Source: a virus
Lineage: Duplodnaviria > Heunggongvirae > Uroviricota > Caudoviricetes
Length of the DNA stretch: 32,125 nt
IMG/VR virus record: IMGVR_UViG_2541047945_000009
Location: 1 to 32,125 of that record
Direction: 5' to 3' (one strand)
The position numbers and the translations under genes are program-made. The notes beneath the pieces were generated by a model. It was not told where the DNA came from and did not search any database. It saw only the letters and a list, made by a program, of their open reading frames with translations. Of this stretch, positions 6,401-24,745 are shown piece after piece. Position 1 is the first letter of the stretch, and each line of letters begins with the position of its first letter.

Positions 6401-6452
6401 ACTTTAAAAAGGGCGGACATCAGCCGAACTTCAAGAAAAAAACTGATGCCGC
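6401..6452 (-). terminator. Candidate intrinsic terminator on the leftward transcript upstream of kilR
   Basis: About 11-bp stem (GGCGGCATCAG / CTGATGTCCGCC on the minus strand) with a long loop, followed by CTTTTT on the minus strand. Confidence 0.35.
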
Positions 6453-7160: not shown

Positions 7161-7312
7161 CTTACTGTGTGCTTCTCCAACCATCGGCGCGCACCAGTTT
7201 CGGTTTTAAATGTTTTGCTTTTGGTATACGTCATGGCAGTGAACGTTCCATCCTGGTTGGGGAACACGCCGCACACCAGGGATTCGTTGTTGCCGAGGTC
7301 GATTTTTTGCAT
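7157..7312 (-). CDS. ydaF: Small protein YdaF-like (51 aa)
   Basis: Hand translation of the minus strand: MQKIDLGNNESLVCGVFPNQDGTFTAMTYTKSKTFKTETGARRWLEKHTVS; 3' end is convergent with and overlaps the sieB stop. Confidence 0.5.
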   Translation of the reverse strand: MQKIDLGNNESLVCGVFPNQDGTFTAMTYTKSKTFKTETGARRWLEKHTVS

Positions 7313-7322
7313 TTTGCGAATC

Positions 7323-7457
7323 TCACATCTTGTTGCTACGTATAGCGACTTCTGCCTGCCAGAGATCCTAGTCGTTGCTGCGTAAAGCCTGCACAGCCTG
7401 GTTGTAAGTGATACCGCAACAATCCATCAAATACTGAACTACTTCGTAATGCACCAT
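7323..7457 (-). pseudogene. ydaG: ydaG-like small ORF interrupted by an in-frame TAG at codon 30
   Basis: Minus strand: strong GGGGAGAG Shine-Dalgarno, then ATG MVHYEVVQYLMDCCGITYNQAVQALRSND, TAG at 7368-7370, and the same frame continues DLWQAEVAIRSNKM-stop. The combined 44 codons match my memory of YdaG length. Confidence 0.35.
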
Positions 7458-7744
7458 CTTATCTCTCCCCTTAACGCCGGGTGGCGGAACTAACTGCTGC
7501 ACTGCAAAATTTGAATCCCGCCGTCATGTTCATACGCCTCGGGCTGGCTACTTAACCCCTGACCACTGCCTGGTAACTCGAAGTATTGCCCGGCGTTCTG
7601 TGGGGCGGGGTGGGTTGGTAGGTATATAATGTACTTTATGTTCATCATTGTAAAGTACTTTAAGTACATTTTATGTATAAAAAAATGAGACGGGATAAAG
7701 TGAAGCACAAACCCGGAGGGGGACGCTACCGGATTTATGCTGGT

Positions 7745-8164
7745 TTAAGAGGCTTTTTGTTTTTTCTTTCGTGCTAACTCTTCGTAAATTGCATTGTACT
7801 TCTGTTTTTTCTCCTCAAGAGTTTTTAAAAGTTCATCTGTCTCACTGTCAGGGAGCTCGTCCAGAAGGTCAATGATGATTTTTTGTCTTGGATTTAACTC
7901 CTGATAGAAACGTATCTGTCCACTTTCTTCTGTATCCTCTCCCAAAAGATAGGTTGGTGTTGTTCCAATGAGTGTTGCTAATTCCCTTAATTTCTCTCGG
8001 CGAGGAATTGTTTCACCATTAAACCATTTGCTAACCGCTTTTGGTGTTAATTTCATTCGACGGGCAATTTCTGCCTGCCTTCCATGTTGTTCATAACCAG
8101 CGTTTTCACAGGCTAGCGCAAGCCTACTGGCGAACTCTTTACGCGCTTTATCTTCATGAACCAT
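7745..8164 (-). CDS. racR: Prophage repressor RacR (HTH, CI-like)
   Basis: 139-aa ORF MVHEDKARKEFASRL… with an N-terminal helix-turn-helix (…QAEIARRMKLTPKAVSKW…); divergent from ydaS. Confidence 0.85.
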   Translation of the reverse strand: MVHEDKARKEFASRLALACENAGYEQHGRQAEIARRMKLTPKAVSKWFNGETIPRREKLRELATLIGTTPTYLLGEDTEESGQIRFYQELNPRQKIIIDLLDELPDSETDELLKTLEEKKQKYNAIYEELARKKKQKAS

Positions 8165-8243
8165 AAGTTCAATGATATTCGCTCTTGAATGTACTGTCAG
8201 TTCTGTTATAGCATGTACTCAAAGTTCACATTGTGAGGATGAT
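8165..8243. promoter_or_regulatory. Divergent racR / ydaS-ydaT promoter-operator region
   Basis: 79-bp gap between divergent repressor and cro-like genes; contains repeated (A)TGTACT motifs and a TTCAA…TTGAA inverted pair. Operator assignment is inference. Confidence 0.45.
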
Positions 8244-8498
8244 ATGAACCAGAAAACACTTGAAGATGTAATCAAAACTGTTCGCGTTTCTGTTGTGGCC
8301 GACGTTTGTGGTGTCAGCCAAAGAGCAATCTACAAATGGATGGATAACGGAAAATTGCCTCGCACAGAATATACCGGCGAAACAAATTACGCTGAAAAAA
8401 TCGCTCATGCATCAAACGGATTATTTTCTGCCGATGCAATTTTAACTATTGGCAGAAATAAAACTACTACGAAAAAGCTGATGGGAGTTGATTCATGA
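8244..8498 (+). CDS. ydaS: Cro-like HTH protein YdaS
   Basis: 84 aa from ATG MNQKTLEDVIKT… with GTGAGGATG-type Shine-Dalgarno; HTH segment …VCGVSQRAIYKWMDNGKLP…. Confidence 0.75.
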   Translation: MNQKTLEDVIKTVRVSVVADVCGVSQRAIYKWMDNGKLPRTEYTGETNYAEKIAHASNGLFSADAILTIGRNKTTTKKLMGVDS

Positions 8499-8917
8499 AA
8501 ATCAAGCATGAGCACATCGAATCAGTGTTGTTAGCCCTGGCAGCCGAAAAAGGGCAGGCGTGGGTCGCTAACGCAATTACTGAAGAATATCTGCGCCAGG
8601 GGGGCGGCGAATTGCCCCTGGTACCAGGCAAGGACTGGAACAATCAGCAGAATATCTATCATCGTTGGTTGAAAGGTGAAACGAATGCGCAAAGGGAAAA
8701 AATTCAGAAACTGATCCCTGCGGTTCTGGCAATTCTTCCTCGCGAGCTGCGTCACCGACTCTGCATCTTCGATACCCTGGAACGCCGTGCATTACTGGCG
8801 GCACAGGATGCACTGAGTACGGCAATTGATGCGCATGATGATGCAGTCCAGGCCGTTTACCGTAAAGCACATTTCAGCGGCGGCGGTTCTCCTGGCGATT
8901 CTGTCGTAGTGCATTGA
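8495..8917 (+). CDS. ydaT: YdaT (toxic partner of YdaS, repressed by RacR)
   Basis: 140-aa ORF whose start overlaps the ydaS stop (ATGA); matches Rac YdaT from memory. Confidence 0.75.
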   Translation: MKIKHEHIESVLLALAAEKGQAWVANAITEEYLRQGGGELPLVPGKDWNNQQNIYHRWLKGETNAQREKIQKLIPAVLAILPRELRHRLCIFDTLERRALLAAQDALSTAIDAHDDAVQAVYRKAHFSGGGSPGDSVVVH

Positions 8918-8994
8918 TTGAAATTAATCGTACCGAACTGTTTTGTTCGGTATCAGTTAAATGTAACGCTGCGAGCGTTACAAGGTGAAAACAA

Positions 8995-9783
8995 ATGGCT
9001 TCAAACTGGATAAAGCTCGAAGTTATTACGCCGGATAAGCCGGAAATATTCAGGCTTGCTGAGATTCTGAATATTGATCCAGATGCCGCATTAGGGAAAG
9101 TCATTCGCTTCTGGGCATGGGCGGATCAACAAATGATAGACGGTAACGCAGAGTGTAACGCTCGCGGCGTTACAAAAAGTGCAATAGATCGCATCACTTT
9201 TATGGCTGGTTTTGCTGATGCGTTAATTCAGGTTGGATGGCTGGTCGAAACTAATGGTGTGTTGTCGCTTCCTAACTTTGAGCGCCATAACGGGAAAAGC
9301 TCTAAAAAACGGGCGGTTACAAACGAGAGAGTAACAAAAATACGAGAACTGAAACGAAAAGGTAACGCTGCCAGCGTTACAAAAACGGATCAAAAAGCGT
9401 TACCAGAGGAAGAGAAAGAGGAAGATATAAATACTTATCTCCCCCTAAATCCCCCTCGCCAAAAACGAGCGTCTAAAAAATTCGAACCGGAGGCTATCGA
9501 GCTGCCTGACTGGTTGCCGGAAACACTCTGGCATGAGTGGGTTCAGTTCAGGCAGGCATTGCGAAAACCGATTCGAACGGAGCAGGGCGCTAACGGGGCG
9601 ATACGGGAGCTGGAAAAATTCCGCCAGCAGGGTTTTTCACCTGAGCAGGTGATTCGACACAGCATCGCCAATGAATACCAGGGCTTGTTCGCGCCAAAAG
9701 GTGTTCGACCTGAGACGTTACTCCGACAGGTTAACACCGTCTCGTTACCGGATAGTGCGATCCCGCCAGGCTTCAGGGGGTAA
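8995..9783 (+). CDS. ydaU: Replication protein YdaU-like (O-like initiator candidate)
   Basis: 262-aa ORF immediately upstream of a DnaC-like loader; matches Rac YdaU from memory. Confidence 0.75.
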   Translation: MASNWIKLEVITPDKPEIFRLAEILNIDPDAALGKVIRFWAWADQQMIDGNAECNARGVTKSAIDRITFMAGFADALIQVGWLVETNGVLSLPNFERHNGKSSKKRAVTNERVTKIRELKRKGNAASVTKTDQKALPEEEKEEDINTYLPLNPPRQKRASKKFEPEAIELPDWLPETLWHEWVQFRQALRKPIRTEQGANGAIRELEKFRQQGFSPEQVIRHSIANEYQGLFAPKGVRPETLLRQVNTVSLPDSAIPPGFRG

Positions 9784-9789
9784 CTGACC

Positions 9790-10536
9790 ATGAAAAATAT
9801 TGCGGCAGGCGGCATTCTTGAACGTATCCGCAGACTGGCCCCGCCACATGTAACCGCCCCATTCAAAACGGTAGCGGAGTGGCGCGAGTGGCAACTTTCC
9901 GAAGGCCAGAAACGTTGTGAGGAGATCAACCGTCAGAATCGTCAGTTGCGGGTGGAAAAAATTCTGAATCGCTCTGGCATCCAGCCATTGCACCGCAAAT
10001 GCTCGTTTGCGAATTACCGGGTGCAGAACGACGGTCAGCGATACGCGTTGAACCAGGCGAAATCTATCGCTGATGAACTGATGACCGGGTGTACAAATTT
10101 TGCGTTCAGCGGAAAACCTGGTACCGGAAAAAACCATCTGGCGGCGGCTATCGGGAATCGCCTGCTGAAAGATGGCCAGACAGTGATTGTGGTTACCGTG
10201 GCTGATGTCATGAGTGCTCTACACGCCAGCTATGACGACGGGCAATCAGGCGAAAAATTTTTGCGGGAACTGTGCCAAGTGGATCTGCTGGTTCTTGATG
10301 AAATTGGCATTCAGCGCGAGACAAAAAACGAGCAGGTGGTGCTGCACCAGATTGTTGATCGCCGGACAGCGTCGATGCGCAGCGTGGGGATGCTGACAAA
10401 CCTGAACTATGAGGCGATGAAAACATTGCTCGGCGAGCGGATTATGGATCGCATGACCATGAACGGCGGACGCTGGGTGAATTTTAACTGGGAGAGCTGG
10501 CGTCCGAATGTCGTCCTGCCAGGAATTGCGAAGTGA
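9790..10536 (+). CDS. ydaV: DnaC/IstB-like helicase loader ATPase (YdaV)
   Basis: 248-aa ORF with Walker [12 protein letters not shown] and Walker B LLVLDEIG. Confidence 0.85.
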
Positions 10537-10558
10537 TTTTTACCGGGAGGAAATTTTA

Positions 10559-11320
10559 ATGGAGACTGTTTTTGACGCACTGAAAGCAATGGGAAAAGCC
10601 ACGTCGGTAGAACTGGCTGCGCGACTTGATATCAGTCGTGAAGAGGTACTGAACGAGCTGTGGGAACTGAAAAAGGCTGGTTTCGTTGATAAAAGCGTAT
10701 ACATCTGGCGTGTGGCTGATAACAACGTTCAGCAGGAACAGCCAGAGCAGGCAGAACTGCCGGAAGAAACCACCACGGCAACAGTCGCAAAAATTTCGGA
10801 GTGCGATTTAACTGCGACGATTGAACAACGTGGCCCACAAACGGCGGATGAACTGGCTACGTTTTTCGGCATCACATCACGCAAAGTGGCTTCAACGCTG
10901 GCAATGGCAATCAGTAAAGGTCGTCTGATTCGCGTTAATCAGAACGGTAAATTTCGTTACTGCATGCCGGGCGATAATTTACCAGCAGAGCCGAAAGCTG
11001 CATCGGTAGCGGAAACTGATGGTAAAGCCTTTCCTCAGCCAGCCGGTGTTGCGTTACCAGCACAGGAAGCGGCAACACAGGAAGAAATTAAAACAGATAC
11101 TATGGGGGACATTGTGCAGTCACTACCATCGTTCACTGAAACGCGAGCCAATGACCTGATTTTACCATCGCTGCATATGGCAAACCGCGAACTGCGCCGG
11201 GCGAAAAGTCATGTCCAGAAGTGGGAGCGAGTCTGCGCCGCGCTGCGTGAGTTGAACAAGCACAGGGATATTGTACGACAGATTACTGATTCTTCCCGCC
11301 ATGTTGCATCGGAAAAGTGA
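10559..11320 (+). CDS. ydaW: YdaW-like protein, full length
   Basis: 253 aa from [13 protein letters not shown]… with GGGAGG Shine-Dalgarno; two winged-helix-like segments. The track start at 10508 would overlap ydaV. Confidence 0.6.
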
Positions 11321-11766: not shown

Positions 11767-14025
11767 ATGAAACCAGAATACTTAAGGAAAATAGAATCAT
11801 TGCAACGTGAGGTTGATGATTTCCATCCAGTGCTAAGAGCGCTTCTACCACGTTTGCCGACTGTTACACATGTTGAATATAAGCAAGGACCATCAGAAAA
11901 AGGTGCTGATTTTGTCATAATTAAACGAGATGAGGCATTAGATGAGGAAATATATATTGGGGTTATTTGTAAGGTTGGAAAGATAATTCAGTCAAATAGT
12001 GAGGTCGAACGACAAATAGAAGAGTGTCAATTATACCCACGCTTTATTTCTTCTGGCTCTAAGAACATACATTTGAATGAAATTTGGGTTGTTACTAATT
12101 CATCAATCTCAAATAATGCTCAAGAAAAAATCTACTTAAAATTCAAATCTACAAATATAAAGTTTATAGAAGGTGAGAAAATATGTTCTTTAATCAGTAA
12201 ATATTACCCAGAGTTTTGGGATTTCGAATCCATTAATTATGAGCAATACTTAACAGATACATTGCAAACCATAAGTGATACTCCTGAAAGTTCTTTTTTT
12301 GGTAGTGTTGGCATAAATAACCTTATTGATAGATATGTAAGCAAGGAAGATCATAAAAAACGCAGGCACAGGCCGTTAAAACTGTATAGTGTTGTGAGAG
12401 CCGAGAGATTTATTTTTTTAGAGGGAACTGTTGGCTCCGGGAAAAGTACTTTGCTGAAACAGCTAATTAAAAAAATAAAAGAAGAATATTCTTACGAAAA
12501 AGACTACATCCTTCCAGTATTTTGCCAATACAAGGATGTTCTAGAAAAAAAACTCAATATTGAAAATATAATACAAAGTGTATTAAGTAAGTACAAAATA
12601 CAACATGATGGGAATATTTTATTAATTGTTGATTCGGTGGATGAAGTAAAGGAATCACTTGAGGAAAGGCAAAACAACTTCAGGGACATTGTAGAGAAAG
12701 TATCCAGGAGTGATAAAGTTCGATTACTAGTTGCTTCAAGAATTATGGACTCTCTTCAGGACTATGAAGTTATCGATCAGATGTTTGCAAGATACTCGAT
12801 AATACCACTTAGCACAGGTCAAATAATCGACTTTGTAGATAAAATCTGCAATGACATTAAAATAACAAACAAGCTTAAGAATGGTATAGAAAAAACACCA
12901 CTATTTAAATTCATTCCCAGGACTCCAGTGAGTGCTATTCTTCTAGCAAGAATACTCTCTGATGAGATTAAAGAATTACCATCTACAATGACAGAACTAT
13001 ACTCAAAATACAGTGAGATAGTATTGGGACGATGGGATACATCTAAGGGATTATTATCGCAAACAGAATATGATGTAATAAGTAATATATTAGTAGAAAT
13101 TGCGATGTTTATGATGGATAACTCTCTAAACTGCATATCAATTTCTGAAGTGCAGGACATGTTTTTAAATTATTTGGCCAAAAGAAACTTGAATGTTGAT
13201 GAGGACAAACTTTTCAAAAGACTAATTTATCGCAGTGAAGTAACAACAGTTAATGTTAGAACTAATACGTTCTCATTTCTACACAGATCATTCATGGAGT
13301 ATTTTTACGCTGAAGGACTTAGGAAGCGTGGCTTAATAGACATAAATGATAATATTTATGATATTTATTGGGCAAATAGTTATTTCTTCTATTTTGGTTT
13401 ATTAAGAGACAATGAATATCTTATTGATAAAATTAATGAACTTAAACCTAGTAACGATAAAACAAGATTTTTAAGGTTATTTTATAACGGTTCTTTTTAT
13501 TTGGCTTCATATCTAACTCCGTATAAAAAAATAGCAAGGGGAGTCCTTTTATCATATATAGATGCAGGTAAATTATATGTTGATATTCTCCATGGAAATA
13601 CCGACATCCCGCTGAAGGAGTTTTCACCAGTAGCTCTTCTTTGTATTTTTACAAAGTGTTTAAGTAACAATTACGCATATGATTTTTTCAAATCTGCCTT
13701 GGAAGACTTGTCAGTTCAAATTGAACAATATGAGGAAATTGGGGAACATATTGATTATGCACGTTTCTTCATAGCATCAACACTGAATGAGCTCGGGGAT
13801 AAATCCGCATTTGATAGCTTAGTGGAAAAAAATAAATTAGGTGTTTTGATTAATTTAGGGATAACTCACGTTACAGACGACTCAGGGCTACTAAGTACTA
13901 CGGTTGATAAGTACCTGAAAAAATTCAATAAAAAAGTACGAAGTAACCATGATATGTCTAATTATATATCTAAGTTATATGAGGAATCTACTGGTTCCTT
14001 ACGTACAAACCTACAAATTCAATAA
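11767..14025 (+). CDS. NACHT/STAND-like P-loop NTPase with N-terminal Mrr-like (PD-(D/E)xK-like) domain; candidate antiphage protein
   Basis: 752-aa ORF. Walker A GTVGSGKST (aa 220-228, nt 12424-12450); Walker B LLIVDSVDE (aa 285-293) followed by RLLVASR, the hhhhD[GAS]xDE + sensor pattern typical of NACHT. N-terminus …GADFVIIKRDEALDEEIYIGVICK… resembles an Mrr-type nuclease core. Strongly AT-rich compared with flanking genes. Confidence 0.8.
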   Translation: MKPEYLRKIESLQREVDDFHPVLRALLPRLPTVTHVEYKQGPSEKGADFVIIKRDEALDEEIYIGVICKVGKIIQSNSEVERQIEECQLYPRFISSGSKNIHLNEIWVVTNSSISNNAQEKIYLKFKSTNIKFIEGEKICSLISKYYPEFWDFESINYEQYLTDTLQTISDTPESSFFGSVGINNLIDRYVSKEDHKKRRHRPLKLYSVVRAERFIFLEGTVGSGKSTLLKQLIKKIKEEYSYEKDYILPVFCQYKDVLEKKLNIENIIQSVLSKYKIQHDGNILLIVDSVDEVKESLEERQNNFRDIVEKVSRSDKVRLLVASRIMDSLQDYEVIDQMFARYSIIPLSTGQIIDFVDKICNDIKITNKLKNGIEKTPLFKFIPRTPVSAILLARILSDEIKELPSTMTELYSKYSEIVLGRWDTSKGLLSQTEYDVISNILVEIAMFMMDNSLNCISISEVQDMFLNYLAKRNLNVDEDKLFKRLIYRSEVTTVNVRTNTFSFLHRSFMEYFYAEGLRKRGLIDINDNIYDIYWANSYFFYFGLLRDNEYLIDKINELKPSNDKTRFLRLFYNGSFYLASYLTPYKKIARGVLLSYIDAGKLYVDILHGNTDIPLKEFSPVALLCIFTKCLSNNYAYDFFKSALEDLSVQIEQYEEIGEHIDYARFFIASTLNELGDKSAFDSLVEKNKLGVLINLGITHVTDDSGLLSTTVDKYLKKFNKKVRSNHDMSNYISKLYEESTGSLRTNLQIQ

Positions 14026-14840: not shown

Positions 14841-15055
14841 TTGCATCTGCAATGCTTTTATTGAAATGTTATGATAAAAAAGAACTTTTTCATAACATTA
14901 AAATGCAATTTATCTAATCGTTTTTAATAATAAGTGTGGTATTTCTATCCTTGTACCAGCTATTTAGACTGGCCCCCTGAATCACCAGACAACCAATATC
15001 ACTTATTTAAGTGATAGTCTTAATACTAGTTTTTAGGCTAGTCATTGGAGAGCAG

Positions 15056-15421
15056 ATGATTGATGTCTTAGGACCGGAGAAACGCAGACGGCGTACCACA
15101 CAGGAAAAGATCGCAATTGTTCAGCAGAGCTTTGAACCAGGGATGACGGTCTCCCTCGTTGCCCGGCAACATGGTGTAGCAGCCAGCCAGTTATTTCTCT
15201 GGCGTAAGCAATACCAGGAAGGAAGTCTTACTGCTGTCGCCGCCGGAGAACAGGTTGTTCCTGCCTCTGAACTTGCTGCCGCCATGAAGCAGATTAAAGA
15301 ACTCCAGCGCCTGCTCGGCAAGAAAACGATGGAAAATGAACTCCTCAAAGAAGCCGTTGAATATGGACGGGCAAAAAAGTGGATAGCGCACGCGCCCTTA
15401 TTGCCCGGGGATGGGGAGTAA
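15056..15421 (+). CDS. insC: IS2 OrfA (InsC), HTH transposase subunit
   Basis: 121 aa from [24 protein letters not shown]…, matching IS2 InsC from memory. Confidence 0.9.
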
Positions 15422-16284
15422 GCTTAGTCAGCCGTTGTCTCCGGGTGTCGCGTGCGCAGTTGCACGTCATTCTCAGACGAACCGATGACTGGATGGATGG
15501 CCGCCGCAGTCGTCACACTGATGATACGGATGTGCTTCTCCGTATACACCATGTTATCGGAGAGCTGCCCACGTATGGTTATCGTCGGGTATGGGCGCTG
15601 CTTCGCAGACAGGCAGAACTTGATGGTATGCCTGCGATCAATGCCAAACGTGTTTACCGGATCATGCGCCAGAATGCGCTGTTGCTTGAGCGAAAACCTG
15701 CTGTACCGCCATCGAAACGGGCACATACAGGCAGAGTGGCTGTGAAAGAAAGTAATCAGCGATGGTGCTCTGACGGGTTCGAGTTCCGCTGTGATAACGG
15801 AGAAAAACTGCGAGTCACGTTCGCGCTGGACTGCTGTGACCGTGAGGCACTGCACTGGGCGGTCACTACGGGCGGCTTCAACAGTGAAACAGTACAGGAC
15901 GTCATGCTGGGAGCGGTGGAACGCCGCTTCGGCAACGAGCTTCCGGCGTCTCCAGTAGAGTGGCTGACGGATAATGGTTCATGCTACCGGGCTAATGAAA
16001 CACGGCAGTTTGCCCGGATGTTGGGGCTTGAACCGAAGAGCACGGCGGTGCGGAGTCCGGAGAGTAACGGCATAGCAGAGAGCTTCGTGAAAACGATAAA
16101 GCGTGACTACATCAGTGTCATGCCCAAACCAGACGGGTTAACGGCAGCAAAGAACCTTGCAGAGGCGTTCGAGCATTATAACGAATGGCATCCGCATAGT
16201 GCACTGGGTTATCGCTCGCCACGGGAATATCTACGGCAGCAAGCCAGTAATGGGTTAAGTGATAACAGGTGTCTGGAAATATAG
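15379..16284 (+). CDS. insD: IS2 OrfB (InsD), DDE transposase catalytic subunit
   Basis: 301-aa ORF overlapping insC in the -1 frame; matches IS2 InsD from memory. Confidence 0.9.
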
Positions 16285-16419
16285 GGGCAAATCCACTATT
16301 TGATATGTAGTGTTTGTTCATGCTATGTGGAGCTTTACACCATAGCCAGTTTATTTATACTTTATTCGTCAGCCTGAACAACTGGCATCTGCTGCACTGC
16401 GCCATAGAGAGATTGAGAA

Positions 16420-17019
16420 ATGGCGCATATACAACTAGTCAAACAAACCTCTTCCGGATTACTTCTCCCGGCGACGCCGGAGAGTTGCGATTTTCTGCAT
16501 CAAATCAAAATAGGTGAGTGGATACACGCAGACTTTAAGCGTGTGCGTAACTACGCATTCCACAAGCGTTTTTTCAAACTCCTGCAACTGGGATTCGATT
16601 ACTGGACTCCGGTCGGTGGGGCGATCACGCCTCGCGAACGAGAACTGCTGTCTGGTTTCGTTGATTACCTGTGCGAATCAGTTGGTCGGGAACACACGCC
16701 AGCCCTGAGTGATGCCGCAGAGCAATACCTTAACACCGTTGCGACTCGTAGAACCCGGGATACGGCGTTGCTAAAGTCGTTTGAGGCTTTCCGCGAGTGG
16801 GTAACCATTCAGGCCGGATTTTACACCGAGCATATTTATCCGGACGGTAGCCGTGGGCGTCGGGCAAAATCCATCGCTTTTGCGAATATGGACGAAACCG
16901 AGTTTCAGCAGGTTTATAAATCTGTACTGAATGTGCTGTGGAACTGGATTCTGTTCCGTAAATTCTCCTCTCAGGAGGAAGTTGAAAATGTGGCCGCACA
17001 ACTACTGGAGTTTGCGTAA
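16420..17019 (+). CDS. nin-region protein (DUF1367-like, uncertain)
   Basis: 199-aa ORF MAHIQLVKQTSSG… at the head of a coupled three-gene operon; family name recalled from memory and not verified. Confidence 0.6.
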   Translation: MAHIQLVKQTSSGLLLPATPESCDFLHQIKIGEWIHADFKRVRNYAFHKRFFKLLQLGFDYWTPVGGAITPRERELLSGFVDYLCESVGREHTPALSDAAEQYLNTVATRRTRDTALLKSFEAFREWVTIQAGFYTEHIYPDGSRGRRAKSIAFANMDETEFQQVYKSVLNVLWNWILFRKFSSQEEVENVAAQLLEFA

Positions 17020-17309
17020 TGGTGAATTTACGTAAAGCGGCTAAAGGCCAGATGTGCCAGATCAGAATCCCTGGCTACTGCAATCACAATCCCGAAACCT
17101 CTGTGCTGGCGCATTACAGGCTGGCGGGGACGTGCGGAACAGCGACAAAACCACACGATATGCAGGCGGCGATAGCCTGTAGCTCATGCCACGATCTAAT
17201 CGACGGGCGGGTAAAAACCAGCGATTACACCAAAGAAGAATTGCGCCTGATGCATGCTGAAGGGGTTTTTCGCACACAAGAAATCTGGAGAAAGAAAGGT
17301 CATTTATGA
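17019..17309 (+). CDS. YbcO-like protein (DUF1364, Cys-rich)
   Basis: 96 aa MVNLRKAAKGQMCQIRIPGYCNHNPETSVLAHYRL…CSSCHDLIDGR resembling DLP12 YbcO from memory; start overlaps the upstream stop (TAATG). Confidence 0.65.
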   Translation: MVNLRKAAKGQMCQIRIPGYCNHNPETSVLAHYRLAGTCGTATKPHDMQAAIACSSCHDLIDGRVKTSDYTKEELRLMHAEGVFRTQEIWRKKGHL

Positions 17310-17848
17310 TTTACCCAACGAATACAGGAAAAAGCGGAGAACACCTTCGCCTCACCACGCTGGAAAGTGTCTGGATTCAGGGAAAACTACGTATGTGGGG
17401 GCGCTGGTCGTATATTGGCGGTGGCAGGTCAGGGAATATGTTCAATCAGTTGTTGGCATCCAAAAAACTGACGAAAACAGCCATTAATGAAGCCCTGCGC
17501 AGAATGAAAAAAGCGGGAATAGAGAAAGCTGAGCTGGAAGCGTTTTTGCGAGAGATGATCAACGGCAAGCAAAAGAGCTGGCTGGCGCATTGTACTGATG
17601 CAGAGGCGTTATGTATTGATCGAGTCATAAGTGAGGTGCTGGCAGAGCATCCAGGATTGATTTGCATTCTCCGGCAACGCTATGAAGGGCGGGGGATGAC
17701 TAAGCGCAAAATGGCTGAATTGCTAAATGATGCACACCCAGAGTGGTGTTTTAGCACATGCGAAAAACGGATTGCTAATTGGTTAGCTGTTGCTGAGTAT
17801 GCCCTATATATTCCCATGCGTGAATCATTTGCTGAGAAAATGGCTTGA
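17306..17848 (+). CDS. Putative late-gene antiterminator Q-like protein
   Basis: 180-aa ORF, ATGA-coupled to the upstream gene, last gene before an intrinsic terminator and the lysis region. Assignment rests mainly on position. Confidence 0.5.
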   Translation: MIYPTNTGKSGEHLRLTTLESVWIQGKLRMWGRWSYIGGGRSGNMFNQLLASKKLTKTAINEALRRMKKAGIEKAELEAFLREMINGKQKSWLAHCTDAEALCIDRVISEVLAEHPGLICILRQRYEGRGMTKRKMAELLNDAHPEWCFSTCEKRIANWLAVAEYALYIPMRESFAEKMA

Positions 17849-17938
17849 TTTCTTACGTATAAACTGCTTCAATTTTGCTATGCTTCGCAAAGCTGTATCG
17901 CGAGGCGGATTGCAGACATGGACATCGTAAAAAAACCG

Positions 17939-17965
17939 CTTAATGCGGTTTTTTTACGTCAGGAA
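17939..17965 (+). terminator. Intrinsic terminator downstream of the Q-like gene (tR'-like candidate)
   Basis: AAAAAAACCGC-TTAAT-GCGGTTTTTTT: perfect stem flanked by A-run and T-run, so potentially bidirectional. Confidence 0.5.
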
Positions 17966-18275
17966 AGCAGGGGAGAATGCTGCTAGTTGGGCAACTGGTC
18001 TTTCTGCTCCAAATTATAACAGAGACCAGTTATAGTTTCGGTGCTGTGTTTTTTTTACAATATTGTGATAACACATTGCTGGCGGGAGTTTTGATATTTC
18101 TTGGCAGGGGCTGATGATGCGTTATCCTGATGTCGTCAACTCATATAAAATGAGATGAGAGATCATTGCAGGGTGGTTTGTAATTCGCTGTTTAGCGGGA
18201 CAATATGTTGTCTGATACAAGACACCCGACGCCTCAGATTACTATAATAAAGACGAAGCATCCTTTGTATTGACC

Positions 18276-18302
18276 AACCGCCTGTTTAGGCGGTTCTTTT
18301 TG
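18276..18302 (+). terminator. Intrinsic terminator in the Q-to-lysis interval
   Basis: AACCGCCT-GTTT-AGGCGGTT followed by CTTTTT; a TATAAT hexamer lies about 30 bp upstream (18243-18248). Confidence 0.4.
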
Positions 18303-18833
18303 GGCTGGTTTATTGTATGCCAAATGATTATTAAAAAGGTTGTGTTAATAACAAAACCCGAAATAATATGCCTGCATATTTTTATCTTGCTTATATTCTG
18401 CATATTGTGCATAGCAGGCTCATCCCTGCAATCAAAACTGTATGATGAGTATTTTTTGTTTTCCTTTTTTCCAGTCATCTGATGATGACCTGCTTCTTTT
18501 TAATCCGGATCGACATCAGTTTTTTAAGATAATTCCTGCGAGTTATATGCATAAATACCACAAACTCCGCATTTTATGTGGTTGGGAGTTGCCGGGCGCG
18601 CAGTGAGTTTGCTAAGAAAACTCCTGCATGGTGAATCCCCCTGTGCGGTGGGGTGATACCATTAACCTTTTCTGTCGCCGACAGGTATCACGAACATTTT
18701 GTTCACCGGGAGGCACCCGGCACCATGCACTTCAATAGATTCTCTCCACATTATGGATATTCTTTCAGAATATCCCACGCAGACTTTGTGTAAATGTTAA
18801 CAAATGTGCGTTTTATTTGATCTGATTCGCTGT

Positions 18834-18863
18834 TTGAGCGTCCAAAACAACGGTATATATAAT
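18834..18863 (+). promoter_or_regulatory. Candidate promoter for the first TolA-like lipoprotein gene
   Basis: TTGAGC, 18-bp spacer, TATAAT; GTGAGGA Shine-Dalgarno before the ATG at 18893. Confidence 0.35.
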
Positions 18864-18892
18864 CCTTTACTATATGACATATGTGAGGAAAA

Positions 18893-19285
18893 ATGGGTTT
18901 TCGTAGCGCATCAATTCTTACGTTGATTATTAGTGGGATTATTATCGGGTGCACTGATGCTGTATCGACAAATTATCATGACCGTACATCATATTACTCC
19001 GATAAAGCAATAGAGACACAGTATGTGAGTTCATCTGAACGTACTTCTGATGTTAGTGAGGATATCCGTCTGTATGCCCATCAAATCAAGAGCGCCATCG
19101 AAAAACAGTTCGGGGATGCGAGTAAGTATTCAGGAAAAGAGTGTACACTGAGAATGCATATGGCCCCGAATGGCCTTCTACTGGAGGTTAAAAGAGAAAG
19201 TGGAGACCTCGATTTATGTCGTGAAGCGATGAATGCGATAAAGAATGCTGATATACCTGCCCCCCCCTTCGCCGGAAGTATATAA
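18893..19285 (+). CDS. Lipoprotein with TolA C-terminal domain III-like domain
   Basis: 130 aa; signal peptide with lipobox IIGC; C-terminal YAHQIKSAIEKQFGDASKYSGKECTLRMHMAPNGLLLEVKRESGDLDLCREAMNAIKNADIPAPP aligns closely with my memory of E. coli TolA domain III (YAGQIKSAIESKFYDASSYAGKTCTLRIKLAPDGMLLDIKPEGGDPALCQAALAAAKLAKIPKPP). Confidence 0.7.
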   Translation: MGFRSASILTLIISGIIIGCTDAVSTNYHDRTSYYSDKAIETQYVSSSERTSDVSEDIRLYAHQIKSAIEKQFGDASKYSGKECTLRMHMAPNGLLLEVKRESGDLDLCREAMNAIKNADIPAPPFAGSI

Positions 19286-19472
19286 AGTATTTCAAAATGG
19301 GGTGCTGGATTTTAAACCCTGATATTTATTGTTTTGTAATAAACGGTTTCGGCTTAGGTTTGTTCTGACACAGCTACGGCACTGAGCTAAATTTAGCGGA
19401 TAGTCAGCTCTGAGCCAGTGGCGGACGTAACAACTACTATTGCTGAGATTTTAATGGATTGAGGAGCAAGAA

Positions 19473-19868
19473 GTGGGATTAAAGAAAATCGTTATGTTGA
19501 CTTTTTGGGTCGGTTTTGTTGCGGGATGCACACCTTTACACCCTTCAGATTGCCACAAAACTACTGCTACAGGTAGTTGCAGTTCAGGACGCTGGGATGA
19601 TCAGGATGAATGGGGGGCGCAAGCGCGGGGAATCAGAGCTGCAATTAATGCCAAACTTGATGAGCCGCATAACTGGAAAGGGAAAAAATGCAGGTTGCAT
19701 ATGGAATTCTCTCAGGATGGCACGGCGTTAAAAATATCTACCAGTAACGGTGATAAAGCCTATTGCGAAGCGATAAAGTCCGCAGCTCATAAAGCCAAAT
19801 TTCCGGCCTTCAACAATCCGGAAGTCTACAGAGATTTTCAGAAATCTGGCTTTGACATGCGAGGTTAG
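19473..19868 (+). CDS. Second lipoprotein with TolA domain III-like domain (paralog)
   Basis: 131 aa, GTG start with GAGGAG Shine-Dalgarno; lipobox VAGC; shares the K-C-L-HM…G…GD…C…A…P pattern and a C-terminal VYRDFQKSGFDMRG resembling the TolA end VYEVFKNAPLDFKP. Confidence 0.7.
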   Translation: MGLKKIVMLTFWVGFVAGCTPLHPSDCHKTTATGSCSSGRWDDQDEWGAQARGIRAAINAKLDEPHNWKGKKCRLHMEFSQDGTALKISTSNGDKAYCEAIKSAAHKAKFPAFNNPEVYRDFQKSGFDMRG

Positions 19869-19993
19869 CTCTTCAATTACTATATCTCATTCATAGCAAA
19901 CTGACAGATTTGATGATGTTCTATATACGAAACCTGTGATGTCAAGTCTGAGCTAATACAAATAAACATAATATCAGAGAAATACATTTTATT

Positions 19994-20016
19994 AGCTCGC
20001 TACGGCGAGCTTTTTA
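19994..20016 (+). terminator. Intrinsic terminator between the lipoprotein pair and the holin
   Basis: AGCTCGC-TACG-GCGAGCT followed by TTTTAT. Confidence 0.45.
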
Positions 20017-20119
20017 TATTGCATCGTCTCCAGCATATATATCAATTAAGGCTCTGATTGATGTGTCTGAAAGCCTACACATAATAACTATGCCATCCGT
20101 TCCGTGCGGAGGTGAGGCT

Positions 20120-20335
20120 ATGAAATCCATGGACAAAATTTCAACAGGCATTGCCTACGGCACCTCCGCAGGCAGTGCTGGCTACTGGTTTTTACAGTTG
20201 CTCGATAGAGTAACTCCGTCACAGTGGGCTGCAATCGGTGTGCTGGGTAGTCTGGTATTTGGCCTGCTGACGTACCTGACAAACCTTTATTTCAAGATTA
20301 AAGAAGATAAGCGCAAGGCTGCGAGAGGTGAATAA
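20120..20335 (+). CDS. Pinholin, phage 21 S-type, with dual-start motif
   Basis: 71 aa from [26 protein letters not shown]…; Met1/Met4 dual start; two transmembrane segments; GGTGAGG Shine-Dalgarno. Matches S21 from memory. Confidence 0.85.
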
Positions 20336-20832
20336 TGCCTCCATCATTACGAAAAGTCGTTGCTGCTGCTATTGGTGGCGGAGCAATTGCTATAGCATCA
20401 GTGTTAATCACTGGCCCAAGTGGTAACGATGGTCTGGAAGGTGTCAGCTACATACCATACAAAGATATTGTTGGTGTATGGACTGTATGTCACGGGCATA
20501 CAGGAAAAGACATCATGCTCGGTAAAACGTATACCAAAGCAGAATGCAAAACACTCTTGAATAAAGACCTTGCCACTGTCGCCAGACAAATTAACCCGTA
20601 CATCAAAGTCGATATACCGGAAACAACGCGCGGCGCTCTTTACTCATTCGTTTACAACGTGGGTGCTGGCAATTTCAGAACATCGACGCTTCTTCGCAAA
20701 ATAAACCAGGGCGATATCAAAGGCGCATGTGATCAGCTACGTCGCTGGACATATGCTGGCGGTAAGCAATGGAAAGGTCTCATGACTCGTCGTGAGATTG
20801 AGCGTGAAATCTGTTTGTGGGGTCAGCAATGA
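20335..20832 (+). CDS. SAR endolysin (lysozyme, R21-like)
   Basis: 165 aa; Gly/Ala-rich signal-anchor-release N-terminus (…[18 protein letters not shown]…); E-8aa-D-5aa-T catalytic spacing (E…D…T in [18 protein letters not shown]); start overlaps the holin stop (TAATG). Confidence 0.9.
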
Positions 20833-21293
20833 ACAGAGTAACCGCGATTATCTCCGCTCTGGTTATCTGCATCATCGTCTGCCTGTCATGGGCTGTTAAT
20901 CATTACCGTGATAACGCCATTACCTACAAAGCCCAGCGCGACAAAAATGCCAGAGAACTGAAGCTGGCGAACGCGGCAATTACTGACATGCAGATGCGTC
21001 AGCGTGATGTTGCTGCGCTCGATGCAAAATACACGAAGGAGTTAGCTGATGCGAAAGCTGAAAATGATGCTCTGCGTGATGATGTTGCCGCTGGTCGTCG
21101 TCGGTTGCACATCAAAGCAGTCTGTCAGTCAGTGCGTGAAGCCACCACCGCCTCCGGCGTGGATAATGCAGCCTCCCCCCGACTGGCAGACACCGCTGAA
21201 CGGGATTATTTCACCCTCCGGGAACGACTGGTAATGATGCAGGCCCAACTTGAAGGTGCTCAGCAATACATAACCGAGCAGTGTTTAAAGTAA
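20829..21293 (+). CDS. rzpR: Rz inner-membrane spanin
   Basis: 154 aa from [17 protein letters not shown]…; N-terminal transmembrane segment then coiled-coil; ATGA overlap with the endolysin stop. Confidence 0.8.
21049..21234 (+). CDS. rzoR: Rz1 outer-membrane lipoprotein spanin, embedded in Rz in the +1 frame
   Basis: 61 aa [24 protein letters not shown]… with lipobox VVGC and a proline-rich stretch; matches lambda Rz1 from memory. Confidence 0.8.
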
Positions 21294-21430
21294 AATCTTA
21301 ACTACAATATGATTCATTTTGATGATTGTTTCATAAGGAACAGTGAAGTAAGATCTAAGAGGAGTTAAATTTTATACAGTATAATCATAATATTGCAGCA
21401 AGGTGGTTATAATTGAAAGAATATTTAGAT

Positions 21431-22888
21431 ATGAATACATCTCATGTAAGAGTTGTTACTCATATGTGTGGGTTCCTGGTTTGGCTCTATAGTCTTTCAA
21501 TGTTGCCACCAATGGTTGTAGCATTGTTTTATAAAGAAAAAAGCCTGTTCGTTTTCTTTATAACTTTCGTTATATTTTTTTGCATTGGTGGCGGAGCGTG
21601 GTATACAACTAAGAAATCTGGCATTCAATTACGTACCCGTGATGGGTTTATTATAATTGTAATGTTTTGGATTTTGTTTTCTGTTATTAGTGCATTCCCT
21701 TTATGGATTGACTCAGAACTTAATTTAACGTTCATTGATGCTCTGTTTGAAGGGGTTTCTGGAATAACAACAACAGGAGCAACTGTAATTGATGATGTTA
21801 GTTCATTACCTCGGGCATATTTGTACTATCGGTCACAGTTAAATTTTATAGGTGGTTTAGGAGTTATTGTTCTGGCGGTTGCTGTATTGCCATTATTGGG
21901 TATTGGTGGTGCAAAGCTTTATCAGTCAGAAATGCCGGGGCCATTTAAGGATGACAAACTCACTCCCCGCCTGGCCGATACGTCACGGACACTGTGGATA
22001 ACTTATTCTTTATTAGGTATTGCTTGTATTGTCTGTTATAGACTTGCAGGAATGTCTTTGTTTGATGCTATTTGTCACGGGATTTCCACAGTTTCGCTTG
22101 GTGGTTTCTCAACTCATAGCGAGAGTATCGGATATTTTAATAACTATTTGGTTGAGCTGGTGGCTGGTTCTTTTTCCCTGCTATCGGCTTTCAACTTCAC
22201 TCTTTGGTATATTGTTATTAGCAGAAAAACGATAAAACCTTTAATCAGAGATATTGAACTTCGTTTCTTTCTGTTAATAGCCTTAGGGATGATCATTGTT
22301 ACCTCTTTCCAGGTCTGGCATATAGGTATGTATGACTTGCATGGAAGTTTTATTCATTCGTTTTTTCTTGCCAGCTCCATGCTCACTGATAATGGTTTAG
22401 CTACGCAGGATTATGCAAACTGGCCCACGCACACGATAGTGTTTTTGCTGTTGTCAAGTTTCTTTGGGGGATGTATCGGTTCAACCTGTGGTGGAATTAA
22501 GTCACTTCGATTTCTTATACTTTTCAAACAAAGCAAACACGAGATAAATCAACTTTCTCATCCCAGAGCGTTGTTAAGTGTAAATGTAGGAGGGAAGATA
22601 GTTACAGATCGTGTAATGAGGTCTGTATGGAGTTTCTTTTTTCTTTATACTCTCTTCACGGTGTTTTTTATACTGGTGTTAAATGGTATGGGATATGATT
22701 TTCTTACATCATTTGCAACAGTGGCTGCATGTATTAATAATATGGGATTAGGTTTTGGGGCTACTGCATCGTCATTCGGAGTGCTTAATGACATTGCAAA
22801 ATATTTAATGTGCATAGCTATGATTCTTGGTCGCCTTGAAATTTATCCTGTTATTATATTGTTTTCAGGTTTTTTTTGGCGCTCCTAA
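21431..22888 (+). CDS. trkG: Trk-type potassium transporter TrkG
   Basis: 485 aa from ATG MNTSHVRVVTHMCGF…; multi-pass membrane protein matching K-12 TrkG from memory; AT-rich relative to flanking phage genes. The track ORF starts 18 nt upstream at a TTG. Confidence 0.9.
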   Translation: MNTSHVRVVTHMCGFLVWLYSLSMLPPMVVALFYKEKSLFVFFITFVIFFCIGGGAWYTTKKSGIQLRTRDGFIIIVMFWILFSVISAFPLWIDSELNLTFIDALFEGVSGITTTGATVIDDVSSLPRAYLYYRSQLNFIGGLGVIVLAVAVLPLLGIGGAKLYQSEMPGPFKDDKLTPRLADTSRTLWITYSLLGIACIVCYRLAGMSLFDAICHGISTVSLGGFSTHSESIGYFNNYLVELVAGSFSLLSAFNFTLWYIVISRKTIKPLIRDIELRFFLLIALGMIIVTSFQVWHIGMYDLHGSFIHSFFLASSMLTDNGLATQDYANWPTHTIVFLLLSSFFGGCIGSTCGGIKSLRFLILFKQSKHEINQLSHPRALLSVNVGGKIVTDRVMRSVWSFFFLYTLFTVFFILVLNGMGYDFLTSFATVAACINNMGLGFGATASSFGVLNDIAKYLMCIAMILGRLEIYPVIILFSGFFWRS

Positions 22889-23025
22889 TATATGGCTGAT
22901 TTATAATTGTGAGTTTAATATTATGTTGACTCACTCATTGATCCAATACCTAACTTTACCAGCAACACCTCCGCCCCCAGTAGCACTGGCTGCTGGGGTG
23001 CGTTTTATTCATAAAGCAAGGCTGT

Positions 23026-23820
23026 ATGAGCGAGAAATTAAAGATAGTCTATCGCCCATTACAAGAATTGTCACCGTATGCGCACAATGCCAGGACGCAC
23101 AGTACTGAGCAGGTGGCACAACTGGTAGAAAGTATTAAGCAATTCGGCTGGACTAATCCGGTGCTGATTGACGAAAAGGGCAAAATTATTGCGGGTCACG
23201 GTCGTGTTATGGCGGCTGAAATGCTCAAAATGGATTCTGTTCCGGTCATTGTTCTGTCTGGCCTGACGGATGAGCAGAAAAAGGCGTACCGCCTGGCAGA
23301 TAATCGCCTGCCGATGAATGCTGGCTGGGATGAAGATCTGTTGCGGATGGAGCTGTCGGACCTAATCAATGCTGATTTTGATGTCTCCCTGACAGGCTTC
23401 ATCCCGACAGAAATTGATGAACTGTTGACGGATGTTTTGCCCGGTACAGGAAATGAGGAGGAGCCGTATACGACGAAAATTGATACGCCTGTTTATGAGC
23501 CGTCGGGCGGTAAACCGGATATCAGTGAACTGTACGACGATACGAAAACTCAGGAGCTGATCAGCCGGATACGTTCGGCGTCCCTTGATCCTGATATTGA
23601 GAAATTCCTCCTGTGTGCGGCAGAACGTCACACAGTGTTTAATTTCAGCAGAATTGCGGACTATTACGCTCATGCCCCCGCTGAAATTCAGTGCCTTTTC
23701 GAGGAGTCGGCGCTGGTGATCATTGATTATCAGCAGGCTATTGAAAATGGATTTGTCCGAATGACGCAGCGCATGGTGGAGATCATGCATGGCGGGGAGG
23801 AGGAGGAGGAATATGCGTGA
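23026..23820 (+). CDS. ParB-like nuclease domain protein
   Basis: 264-aa ORF; N-terminal ParB/Srx-like region with …IIAGHGRVMAA… motif; acidic C-terminus. Common immediately upstream of terminase genes. Confidence 0.7.
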   Translation: MSEKLKIVYRPLQELSPYAHNARTHSTEQVAQLVESIKQFGWTNPVLIDEKGKIIAGHGRVMAAEMLKMDSVPVIVLSGLTDEQKKAYRLADNRLPMNAGWDEDLLRMELSDLINADFDVSLTGFIPTEIDELLTDVLPGTGNEEEPYTTKIDTPVYEPSGGKPDISELYDDTKTQELISRIRSASLDPDIEKFLLCAAERHTVFNFSRIADYYAHAPAEIQCLFEESALVIIDYQQAIENGFVRMTQRMVEIMHGGEEEEEYA

Positions 23821-24745
23821 TGATTTTTGCGCCTTTATTCTGACTCACGGGCGACCGGACAAAGTTCTGACTTACCGGACGTTGCGTCGTGCTGGCTATA
23901 CCGGGAAAATTTTTATCGTTGTTGATGATGAAGATAAGACACGGCATCAGTACATGGCTGAATTTGGTGAACAGGTGCTGGTATTTTCCAAAGCCGATAT
24001 TGCCAGTCGTTTTGACGAAGCCGATAATTTTGGTGATCGCCGCTCAATTTTTTACGCCCGTAATGCCTGTTTCGACCTGGCAAAACTGGTCGGGTGTAAA
24101 TACTTCATTCAGCTCGATGATGATTATCACGAGTTCCAGTTTCGGGTGGATCGCAACTATGACCAGGCCTATTTCCCGATAAGGAAACTGGATGCGATCC
24201 TTTCTGAAATGCTGGCGTATTACGAATCAATACCCGCGCTTTCCATCGCTATGTCGCAGGGCGGGGATTTTCTTGGTGACAATGGCGGCCATGCTTCGTG
24301 GGTGAAACGCAAGGCAATGAACAGCTTTATCTGTTCGGTTGATCGACCGTTCTCATTCATGGGGCGCATTAACGAGGATGTGAATACGTACACGAATCTC
24401 GGTCGCTGTGGTGAATTGTTTATGACGATCGGTGCTGTCCAGTTAGGGCAGAAACAGACTCAGAAAAACAGCGGCGGAATGACCGAGCTGTATCTGGATT
24501 CCGGAACCTACGTTAAAAGTTTTTACTCCGTCATGTATTCGCCGTCGTGCGTAAAAATCTCACTGATGGGTGCCAGCCATAAACGCATTCACCATCAGGT
24601 CACCTGGAACAACGCTGCAGTAAAAATCCTTCACGAAAAATACAGGAAGAAGACACCCTGCATATCAATGGGGGTGACAAATGATTCCGTATTCGAAAGT
24701 CGAGTCTCTGGCAGCGTGCCGGATGACTGCACAACAAATCGCTGA
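23813..24745 (+). CDS. Hypothetical protein with GT-A glycosyltransferase-like motifs
   Basis: About 310 aa from MRDDFCAFILTHGRPD…; N-terminal strand…IFIVVDDED and a later FIQLDDDY DxD-like motif; start overlaps the ParB-like stop (ATGCGTGA). Fold assignment is motif-level inference. Confidence 0.45.
   Translation: MRDDFCAFILTHGRPDKVLTYRTLRRAGYTGKIFIVVDDEDKTRHQYMAEFGEQVLVFSKADIASRFDEADNFGDRRSIFYARNACFDLAKLVGCKYFIQLDDDYHEFQFRVDRNYDQAYFPIRKLDAILSEMLAYYESIPALSIAMSQGGDFLGDNGGHASWVKRKAMNSFICSVDRPFSFMGRINEDVNTYTNLGRCGELFMTIGAVQLGQKQTQKNSGGMTELYLDSGTYVKSFYSVMYSPSCVKISLMGASHKRIHHQVTWNNAAVKILHEKYRKKTPCISMGVTNDSVFESRVSGSVPDDCTTNR

Follow-up and report, generated by a model that had tools for sequence, protein, structure and literature searches.

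Tandem prophage lipoproteins built on the third domain of TolA, candidate outer-membrane decoys for Tol-dependent invaders

Why would a prophage carry, directly upstream of its holin gene, two small lipoproteins that display the C-terminal domain of the host protein TolA? The question is raised by a Rac-like lambdoid prophage of Escherichia coli, IMG/VR record IMGVR_UViG_2541047945_000009, which was analysed over its whole length of 32,125 nucleotides (hereafter the window) with its open reading frames (ORFs) annotated using Pfam. An initial annotation of this DNA had noticed two ORFs on the same strand with lipoprotein signal peptides (lipoboxes IIGC and VAGC) and TolA-like C-terminal domains. 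Both ORFs (18893-19285 and 19473-19868) and their signal peptides were recovered here, and the identification of the domain by Pfam, PDB and fold matches leads us to propose, tentatively, that the proteins are tethered decoys for invaders that depend on TolA. The gene pair comprises the following features.

18893-19322, + strand: ORF1, TolA-domain-III lipoprotein type 1, in its intact form; the frame in the window stops at 19285 (130 residues)
19260-19267, + strand: poly-C tract and site of the frameshift, C8 in the window and C7 in nearly all other copies
19473-19868, + strand: ORF2, TolA-domain-III lipoprotein type 2, intact, 131 residues

The similarity to TolA was found to be significant at the level of profile, sequence and structure. 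With the Pfam family PF06519 (TolA C-terminal; gathering cut-off 25 bits), ORF1 scored 68.9 bits (E 4e-19) and ORF2 scored 54.6 bits (E 1e-14), and the solved domain III of E. coli TolA was matched with E-values of 1e-20 and 5e-9, respectively. The anticipated cysteine pair aligns with C363/C388 of TolA, and these cysteine columns are invariant in both types. The domain is ~88 residues long rather than ~70 as first estimated, and the PxPP sequence that had been placed at its end is not the domain terminus; it is present in ORF1 only (PAPP), with PAFN in ORF2. AlphaFold2 modelled residues 53-142 of intact ORF1 and residues 40-131 of ORF2 with a predicted local distance difference test score of ~90, the N-terminal linkers being disordered. 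The predicted structures superposed at 0.7-1.2 Å on TolA domain III, which has the order helix-helix-strand-strand-helix-helix-strand. The top Foldseek matches of the intact ORF1 model were 2x9a_B and 1tol (0.7 Å over 86 residues, 60% identity), and that of the ORF2 model was 3qdp (1.1 Å over 84 residues, 32% identity), while TonB C-terminal domains appeared only as distant matches ranked after TolA domain III. As modelled, this structural match is far beyond chance.

Neither protein is a complete TolA. The NCBIfam equivalog NF007065 has a cut-off of 213 bits, against which ORF1 reached 82.7 and ORF2 53.7, with matches confined to profile positions ~293-382 of 387; TIGR02794 was exceeded marginally by ORF1 (61.2 versus 59.45), through its C-terminal part only. 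ORF1 and ORF2 are TolA C-terminal-domain proteins, not TolA. Because the TolQR-coupled anchor and the spanning helix are absent and the equivalog cut-off is failed, their sequences indicate that they are incapable of force transmission.

Intact ORF1 retains sequences of the known ligand sites of TolA. The protein has 142 residues, consisting of a signal peptide with lipobox (residues 1-20, with Cys20), a disordered linker (residues 21-52) and the TolA domain (residues 53-142), and it ends in PAPPSPEVYKVFQNGVLDFKP. In the alignment its C-terminus, IPAPPSPEVYKVFQNGVLDFKP, pairs with IPKPPSQAVYEVFKNAPLDFKP of TolA, such that ORF1 ends in VLDFKP, like TolA. Both LDFKP (TolA 417-421) and the YA.QIKSAIE sequence of the first helix are kept, and in TolA this region provides the binding sites for the N1 domain of the filamentous phage gene 3 protein (g3p-N1), for colicin N and for TolB (PMC4339652; PMC7391070). 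Intact ORF1 also keeps LL(E/D)(V/I)K together with K379/K396 of the colicin A site on domain III (PMC3365938). The sequence comparison indicates that ORF1 and ORF2 belong to different lineages. A recent tandem duplication was ruled out, since ORF1 is 60% identical to TolA domain III and only ~28% identical to ORF2.

The ORF1 allele of the window is frameshifted, which the initial annotation, delimiting the gene by the stop at 19285, had missed. The C8 tract produces a +1 shift that swaps the last 17 residues (SPEVYKVFQNGVLDFKP) for FAGSI. Among the 791 E. coli genomes carrying the segment, ~780 differ by one base (a 66-base instead of a 67-base span) and have the C7 form, in which the intact gene runs to 19322; C7 was likewise found in all 80 IMG/VR prophage loci and in phage mEp460_ev081, whose aligned sequence is otherwise identical to the window there, and 142-residue proteins dominate the ORF1-type database clusters. 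The exact C8 match occurs in two of the 791 genomes, both Z1323PEC0011/13. Phase variation at the tract was ruled out as unlikely given these counts. On a 100%-identical copy, the Prokaryotic Genome Annotation Pipeline (PGAP) calls an incomplete, frameshifted tolA pseudogene with an end equivalent to window position 19322.

Through the frameshift the ORF1 of the window loses its last helix and strand beta3. In TolA, beta3 (A415-K420, using the backbone of D418 and K420) and the first helix constitute the docking site for g3p-N1, colicin N and the TolB N-terminus (PMC4339652; PMC7391070). Because this docking strand is deleted, the allele is most probably inactive, barring an assembly or sequencing error in the homopolymer that added the extra C. 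With ORF1 frameshifted, at most ORF2 is expected to be active in the window.

ORF2 begins at a GTG (19473) with GAGGAG 6 nucleotides upstream, and its N-terminus reads MGLKKIVMLTFWVGFVAG before Cys19 of the lipobox VAGC. The deposited PGAP start lies seven codons 3' (MLTFW...), with loss of the Lys-Lys n-region of the signal peptide, and is probably wrong; the start at GTG 19473 is kept in homologues as MG[LV]KKIV. Two conserved parts follow the signal peptide: a cysteine-containing N-terminal stretch (residues 20-47; window 19530-19613; TPLHPSDCHKTTATGSCSSGRWDDQDEWG), which adds two extra cysteines after that of the lipid anchor, and the TolA domain (residues ~40-131). Conservation of residues 20-47 across genera equals that of the TolA domain, which is surprising for a mere linker, and no confident AlphaFold structure was obtained for them.

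Where would such proteins reside? Lipoproteins were called by a rule requiring an n-region that contains K/R, an h-region free of charge and then a lipobox [LVI][ASTVI][GAS]C, and all three elements are present in ORF2 and in ORF1, which reads MGFRSASILTLIISGIIIG before the cysteine of its lipobox IIGC. The lipobox cysteine is invariant in 30 aligned homologues. Under the classical Lol sorting rule, lipoproteins without Asp at position +2 go to the outer membrane. Since the +2 residue is Thr, not Asp, in both ORF1 and ORF2, both are predicted to be located there.

Taken together, these features suggest a model in which outer-membrane-tethered TolA mimics intercept Tol-dependent colicins or filamentous phages; we hold this as a leading possibility and do so tentatively. 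Each protein would be a stand-alone third domain of TolA, with a lipoprotein signal peptide and a flexible ~30-residue linker replacing the inner-membrane anchor and the periplasm-spanning helix. Once lipidated, and without Asp at +2, it would be delivered to the periplasmic side of the outer membrane, where the ligand-docking surfaces of TolA would be displayed uncoupled from the TolQR motor. These surfaces are the edges of the beta-sheet, to which strands of the partners are added by beta-strand augmentation. Invaders needing TolA (or TolB and then TolA), through the translocation domain in group A colicins or the g3p N1 domain in filamentous phages, would encounter the tethered mimic first, just beneath the outer membrane, and could be held there unproductively, so that the lysogen or the host of the plasmid would become tolerant. 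A moderate quantity of mimic might suffice to block them at little cost to Tol-Pal, because parasite epitopes bind TolA domain III at ~1 µM (as measured for colicin N; PMC4339652) compared with 40-200 µM for the TolB N-terminus (PMC7391070).

We rate the decoy model first because invader affinities are tighter, because a laboratory precedent exists for domain III and because the carriers gain from protection of their host. In that precedent (Levengood-Freyermuth et al. 1993), TolA domain III exported to the periplasm reportedly gave tolerance to colicins and Ff phage. The top Foldseek match of intact ORF1, 2x9a, is the complex of If1 g3p with TolA. Filamentous phages that subsequently require TolA use IncI and F-type pili as receptors, which is consistent with carriage of the family on plasmids; at the level of sequence, mobile-element carriage, purifying selection and the ligand sites kept in ORF1 are also consistent with a decoy. 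Homology, fold, lipobox, cassette architecture, carriage on mobile elements, purifying selection and the frameshift are established by the analysis, whereas we infer that the proteins are lipidated, lie in the outer membrane, bind ligands, are produced in the lysogen and protect it.

The two types differ in how widely they are distributed. Among 5426 complete E. coli genomes, 791 (~15%) carry the cassette segment. The ORF1 type is essentially limited to prophages of E. coli and Shigella, and a diverged form of it (65% identical; P0148) is found alone in other lambdoid prophages. At these P0148-type loci the order (positions ~5660-6429 of the loci) is lambda-type Q, a tRNA-like sequence, the gene, a nanS-p-like esterase and holin, which is the stx slot of Shiga toxin (Stx) phages; AraC-type and TfpB-like genes lie upstream. 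The ORF2 type occurs on ~600 plasmids at 88% identity, being located near psiB/psiA/hok on pO157 and directly after the nikB relaxase gene on IncI-complex conjugative plasmids. It is also found in the chromosomes of ~25 species of Enterobacterales, at mostly non-syntenic sites, with hosts that include Enterobacter, Citrobacter, Leclercia, Klebsiella, Raoultella, Serratia, Pantoea and Rouxiella; one chromosomal gene adjoins GmrSD and HEPN genes. Between prophage and plasmid copies, homology is limited to the coding sequence and its immediate surroundings (-30 to +2). Contigs binned into metagenome-assembled genomes of Lachnospiraceae and Treponemataceae hold an ORF2 gene 89% identical to that of the window, and most likely represent mis-binned enterobacterial plasmid contigs.

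A third type (35% identical, 144 residues) follows a thioredoxin-fold gene on ~300 Klebsiella IncF plasmids. On the K. pneumoniae plasmid NZ_CP070426 (locus 6217-7246), the thioredoxin-fold gene precedes the third-type gene at a distance of 46 nucleotides. The thioredoxin-fold neighbour may be a helper that forms the disulfide of the cysteine pair in the TolA domain.

Substitution patterns show that both types of the window are under purifying selection, which is strong for ORF2. The ratio of nonsynonymous to synonymous substitution rates (dN/dS) was 0.08-0.12 for ORF2 when compared with plasmid and chromosomal homologues; for ORF1 the domain gave 0.25 and the linker 0.49.

Searching 1.84 billion representatives with a profile yielded 572 clusters, of which the top 150 were examined for short forms (no more than 170 residues). 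Ninety-five were short, 63 of these had a lipobox, and 57 of the latter were at least 115 residues long; Asp at +2 was found in none of the short lipobox-bearing representatives. Positions conserved in true TolA are also conserved in the 57 representatives, for example Y340 (0.77), F412/K413/N414, L417, D418 (0.70) and F419 (0.81), and for D418 the conservation exceeds that in TolA itself. Because this profile follows that of true TolA, the ligand-docking edge is retained in the short family; ORF2 is an exception at several ligand positions. A mixed-alignment profile search gained almost nothing over single-sequence searches.

The family is real, widespread and uncharacterised. Consistent with the original impression that such proteins have no characterised function, none was found in the literature, in PADLOC or in a named PHROG: the matching entry, PHROG 5772, is labelled 'unknown function', database names for the proteins refer to the domain alone ('TolA C-terminal domain-containing protein'), a full-text literature search for TolA-like prophage or plasmid lipoproteins found no study of them, and short forms with a lipoprotein signal are absent from a 2025 survey of TolA/TonB evolution. 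If the decoy reading holds, the family plausibly belongs with the entry-blocking lipoproteins of mobile elements. Extending this with somewhat greater caution than for the cassette itself, tethered TolA-III copies might form a widespread, undescribed class of mobile decoy immunity against Tol-dependent bacteriocins and pilus-exploiting filamentous phages, whose members, in at least 57 diverged clusters, reside in prophages, on conjugative plasmids and in genomic islands, both within Enterobacterales and outside this order, the two types of the cassette covering different invader epitopes.

How the pair is expressed bears on what it does, and its surroundings contain the following features.

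17306-17848, + strand: Q-like late antiterminator gene (DUF1133 / Phage_antitermQ; Pfam PF06576 2.5e-107, PF06530 8.6e-06)
17926-17958, + strand: strong A-run/hairpin/U-run terminator ~80 nucleotides 3' of the Q-like gene (RNA fold -19.7 kcal/mol, z -8.2)
18596-18782, + strand: STnc100-family prophage small RNA element directly 5' of ORF1 (Rfam RF02076, 86.6 bits with gathering cut-off 47, E 3.5e-18, full-length)
18834-18863, + strand: candidate sigma-70-like promoter for ORF1, TTGAGC-18-TATAAT, 30 nucleotides 5' of ORF1 (10 of 12 consensus positions)
19994-20011, + strand: intrinsic terminator, hairpin and T-run, closing the cassette 5' of the holin gene (fold -13 kcal/mol, z -4.4)
20063-21293, + strand: lysis cassette directly 3' of the gene pair (Pfam PF04971, PF00959, PF03245)
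20063/20120-20335, + strand: S21-type holin (Pfam)
20335-20832, + strand: lysozyme (Pfam)
20817-21293, + strand: Rz spanin (Pfam)

The Q-like gene marks the start of the late region, and the terminator that follows it could be the tR'-type terminator of the late leader. The two genes travel together in a cassette of ~1.6 kb, with the holin gene on one side and differing Q antiterminators on the other. The block at ~18600-20300 is present in 75-80 of the 80 IMG/VR loci, compared with only ~40 for the upstream Q module and ~30 for the downstream lysis genes, and ORF2 is located 3' of ORF1 in 77 of the 80. In mEp460_ev081 the same block is found behind a different Q, giving at least two Q backgrounds for one cassette. 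Because the block outlasts its flanks across the 80 loci and sits behind different Q genes, the gene pair is, on comparative grounds, one mobile cassette in a Q-dependent late region. The arrangement is moron-like, as originally described, the unit being present or absent as a whole across differing phage backbones. The block common to the different prophage backgrounds starts at or within the STnc100 element, a prophage-associated small RNA (bioRxiv 10.64898/2026.05.13.724894).

Of the terminators that were said to bracket the pair, the 3' one was recovered (19994-20011); on the 5' side the nearest lie 600-950 nucleotides from the cassette genes. The terminator scan found none between ORF1 and ORF2.

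Several observations weigh against the decoy model. ORF2, which is both the widespread type and the sole intact copy in the window, has Q in place of Y340 and FDMRG in place of LDFKP, and retains none of the three lysines (K368/K379/K396) that contact colicin A in TolA domain III (PMC3365938). Because these key positions have diverged, ORF2 may fail to recognise the ligands known for TolA, or may have a different one. The genes are present in one of 50,697 sequenced phage genomes (INPHARED), that of mEp460_ev081; no structural relative was found among the viral structures of BFVD, and PADLOC-DB gave no match at E<=1. A cost is expected, since periplasmic TolA domain III at high level makes cells leaky (PMC6195910). 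Expression in the lysogen would depend on the candidate promoter of ORF1, which is a consensus match only. The site proposed by the initial annotation does exist, and yet the number of promoter-like sites in the region, 11 versus 7.1±2.8 in shuffles, is not above expectation; the site is not conserved 5' of the divergent ORF1 type, an uninformative comparison given that the upstream DNA there differs and is tRNA-like. Finally, the position of the cassette in the late transcription unit directly 5' of the holin gene, which had also been overlooked, makes a late or lysis-related role a live rival.

In this main rival, the mimics would titrate the N-terminus of TolB, weaken Tol-Pal and loosen the outer membrane late in the cycle, with vesiculation and leakage that aid lysis or the release of virions and cargo; at low level they would tune vesicle formation in lysogens. 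The position between Q and holin in every prophage context seen, including the stx slot occupied by the divergent ORF1 type, fits this idea, as do the uninterrupted passage from ORF1 to ORF2 and the single hairpin before the holin gene. The conserved TolB-binding strand beta3 and the conservation of D418 in the short family beyond that in TolA also fit, and periplasmic proteins are released when domain III is overproduced in the periplasm (PMC6195910). A review further notes that modulating the TolB interaction could regulate the production of outer-membrane vesicles (PMC7391070). However, ORF2-type genes are strongly selected on plasmids and chromosomes without a lysis cassette, and a role in lysis only cannot explain them; the phage already has a full set of holin, endolysin and spanin, and the affinity of TolA domain III for TolB is low. 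We consider a Tol-Pal modulator or lysis helper unlikely, and of the rivals to the decoy model it survives best.

The divergence of ORF2 at the TolA ligand positions would also be expected if the fold had become a generic outer-membrane-tethered module for strand augmentation with another partner, such as an outer-membrane protein, a component of conjugation or entry exclusion, or a tailed-phage receptor. Specificity would then be added by the N-terminal cysteine stretch, CxPLHPSxCHKTTAxGSCSSGRWDDQDEWG, which is as conserved as the domain. Genes of the ORF2 type adjoin nikB/trb transfer genes on IncI-complex plasmids, and the thioredoxin-fold gene adjoins the third type on Klebsiella IncF plasmids. 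No candidate partner was identified, however, the fold is still that of TolA, as are most positions of the core and edges, and the contexts are too varied for a dedicated role in conjugation. An adaptor of this kind therefore strikes us as improbable, more so than a Tol-Pal modulator.

That the genes are non-functional tolA fragments acquired by illegitimate recombination, as the pseudogene label given by PGAP to the identical copy and the true frameshift in ORF1 of the window might suggest, is very hard to reconcile with the conserved signal peptides and start sites of their own in both types, dN/dS of 0.08-0.25, an intact 142-residue form in ~780 genomes and dozens of diverged clusters of the same architecture, and would be true at most for the ORF1 allele of the window.

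If the decoy model is correct, a natural mobile mimic of TolA would be a general tolerance determinant, since TolA is the common route of group A colicins and filamentous phages, and the new principle would be that an element copies the host hub which invaders need rather than plugging a receptor. This would bear on therapeutics based on colicins or phages, on the use of plasmid-dependent phages against resistance plasmids, and on competition among gut E. coli. Were the proteins instead to modulate Tol-Pal, they would represent the first regulator of Tol-Pal and vesiculation encoded by a phage. They would also be at hand as probes of how TolB couples to TolA at the outer membrane.

The remainder of the window has the gene order of a lambdoid prophage, as established with Pfam.

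1-1236, - strand: integrase
After the integrase: recT/recE, sieB, replication genes, NACHT nucleoside triphosphatase (NTPase), IS3 element, DUF1367, Q-like antiterminator
11767-14025, + strand: NACHT/STAND NTPase, 752 residues (PF05729 and PF22728)
15011-16284, + strand: IS3-family insertion sequence (HTH_Tnp_1 and rve ORFs), 5' of the DUF1367/Q-like late-regulatory genes
After ORF1 and ORF2: holin, lysozyme, Rz, trkG, terminase, portal, P22-like coat genes
21413-24745, + strand: Rz-to-terminase interval with the host-like K+ transporter gene trkG, a ParB_N-domain ORF (23026-23820) and a TET-associated glycosyltransferase (TAGT; 23789-24745)

The NACHT/STAND NTPase is probably an anti-phage defence moron; the corresponding region of a related Rac prophage in NZ_CP148277 has an anti-phage dGTPase instead. 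Wholesale transfer of annotation from NZ_CP148277 was ruled out, as the window is mosaic and colinear with it only at 2128-10671 and 16329-23447. The ParB_N ORF and the TAGT suggest a DNA-modification module. Positions 18600-20100 are 100% identical to E. coli Z1323PEC0011, the lysis genes are named essD/rrrD/rzpD in the annotation of a near-identical genome, and no tRNA genes were found in the window.

The closest known relative of the proteins encoded by this cassette is domain III of E. coli TolA itself (residues ~333-421; PDB 1TOL, 1S62, 2X9A, 3QDP/3QDR), with which they share fold, family and disulfide pair, ORF1 also keeping the LDFKP strand and the first helix. Unlike TolA, they have neither domain I, the TolQR-coupled transmembrane helix, nor domain II; a signal peptide of 19-20 residues and a ~30-residue linker stand in their place, for a total of 131-142 residues. 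Their genes lie outside the tolQRA-tolB-pal operon, between a prophage Q-like gene and holin, with homologues on plasmids and at unrelated chromosomal sites. Closest in expected effect are the laboratory constructs of Levengood-Freyermuth et al. (1993) and Wan & Baneyx (1998), in which TolA domain III exported to the periplasm is said to have caused tolerance to colicins and Ff phage together with periplasmic leakage. A construct of this kind, used in PMC6195910, likewise places a motor-less domain III in the periplasm, and the phenotype reported for such constructs is that predicted for ORF1 and ORF2. The construct is soluble and overexpressed, whereas the natural proteins are predicted to be lipid-anchored in the outer membrane, are diverged and are carried on mobile elements.

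Llp of T5, Cor of phi80, N15 and the mEp phages, and TraT are small lipoproteins with which resident elements keep competitors out, acting from the inner side of the outer membrane. T5 Llp is described in bioRxiv 10.64898/2026.03.26.714494. Unlike Llp, Cor and TraT, which bind and plug an outer-membrane receptor (FhuA, OmpA), ORF1 and ORF2 would imitate a periplasmic hub. Searches of PHROG and PADLOC found no sequence relation between ORF1 or ORF2 and the exclusion lipoproteins. In cells infected by Ff phage, g3p brings about self-exclusion and colicin tolerance by occupying TolA. The same interface between TolA domain III and its ligands would be targeted here to shut Tol import, and in mirror image: while g3p saturates the TolA of the host, surplus TolA domain III would saturate the invader.

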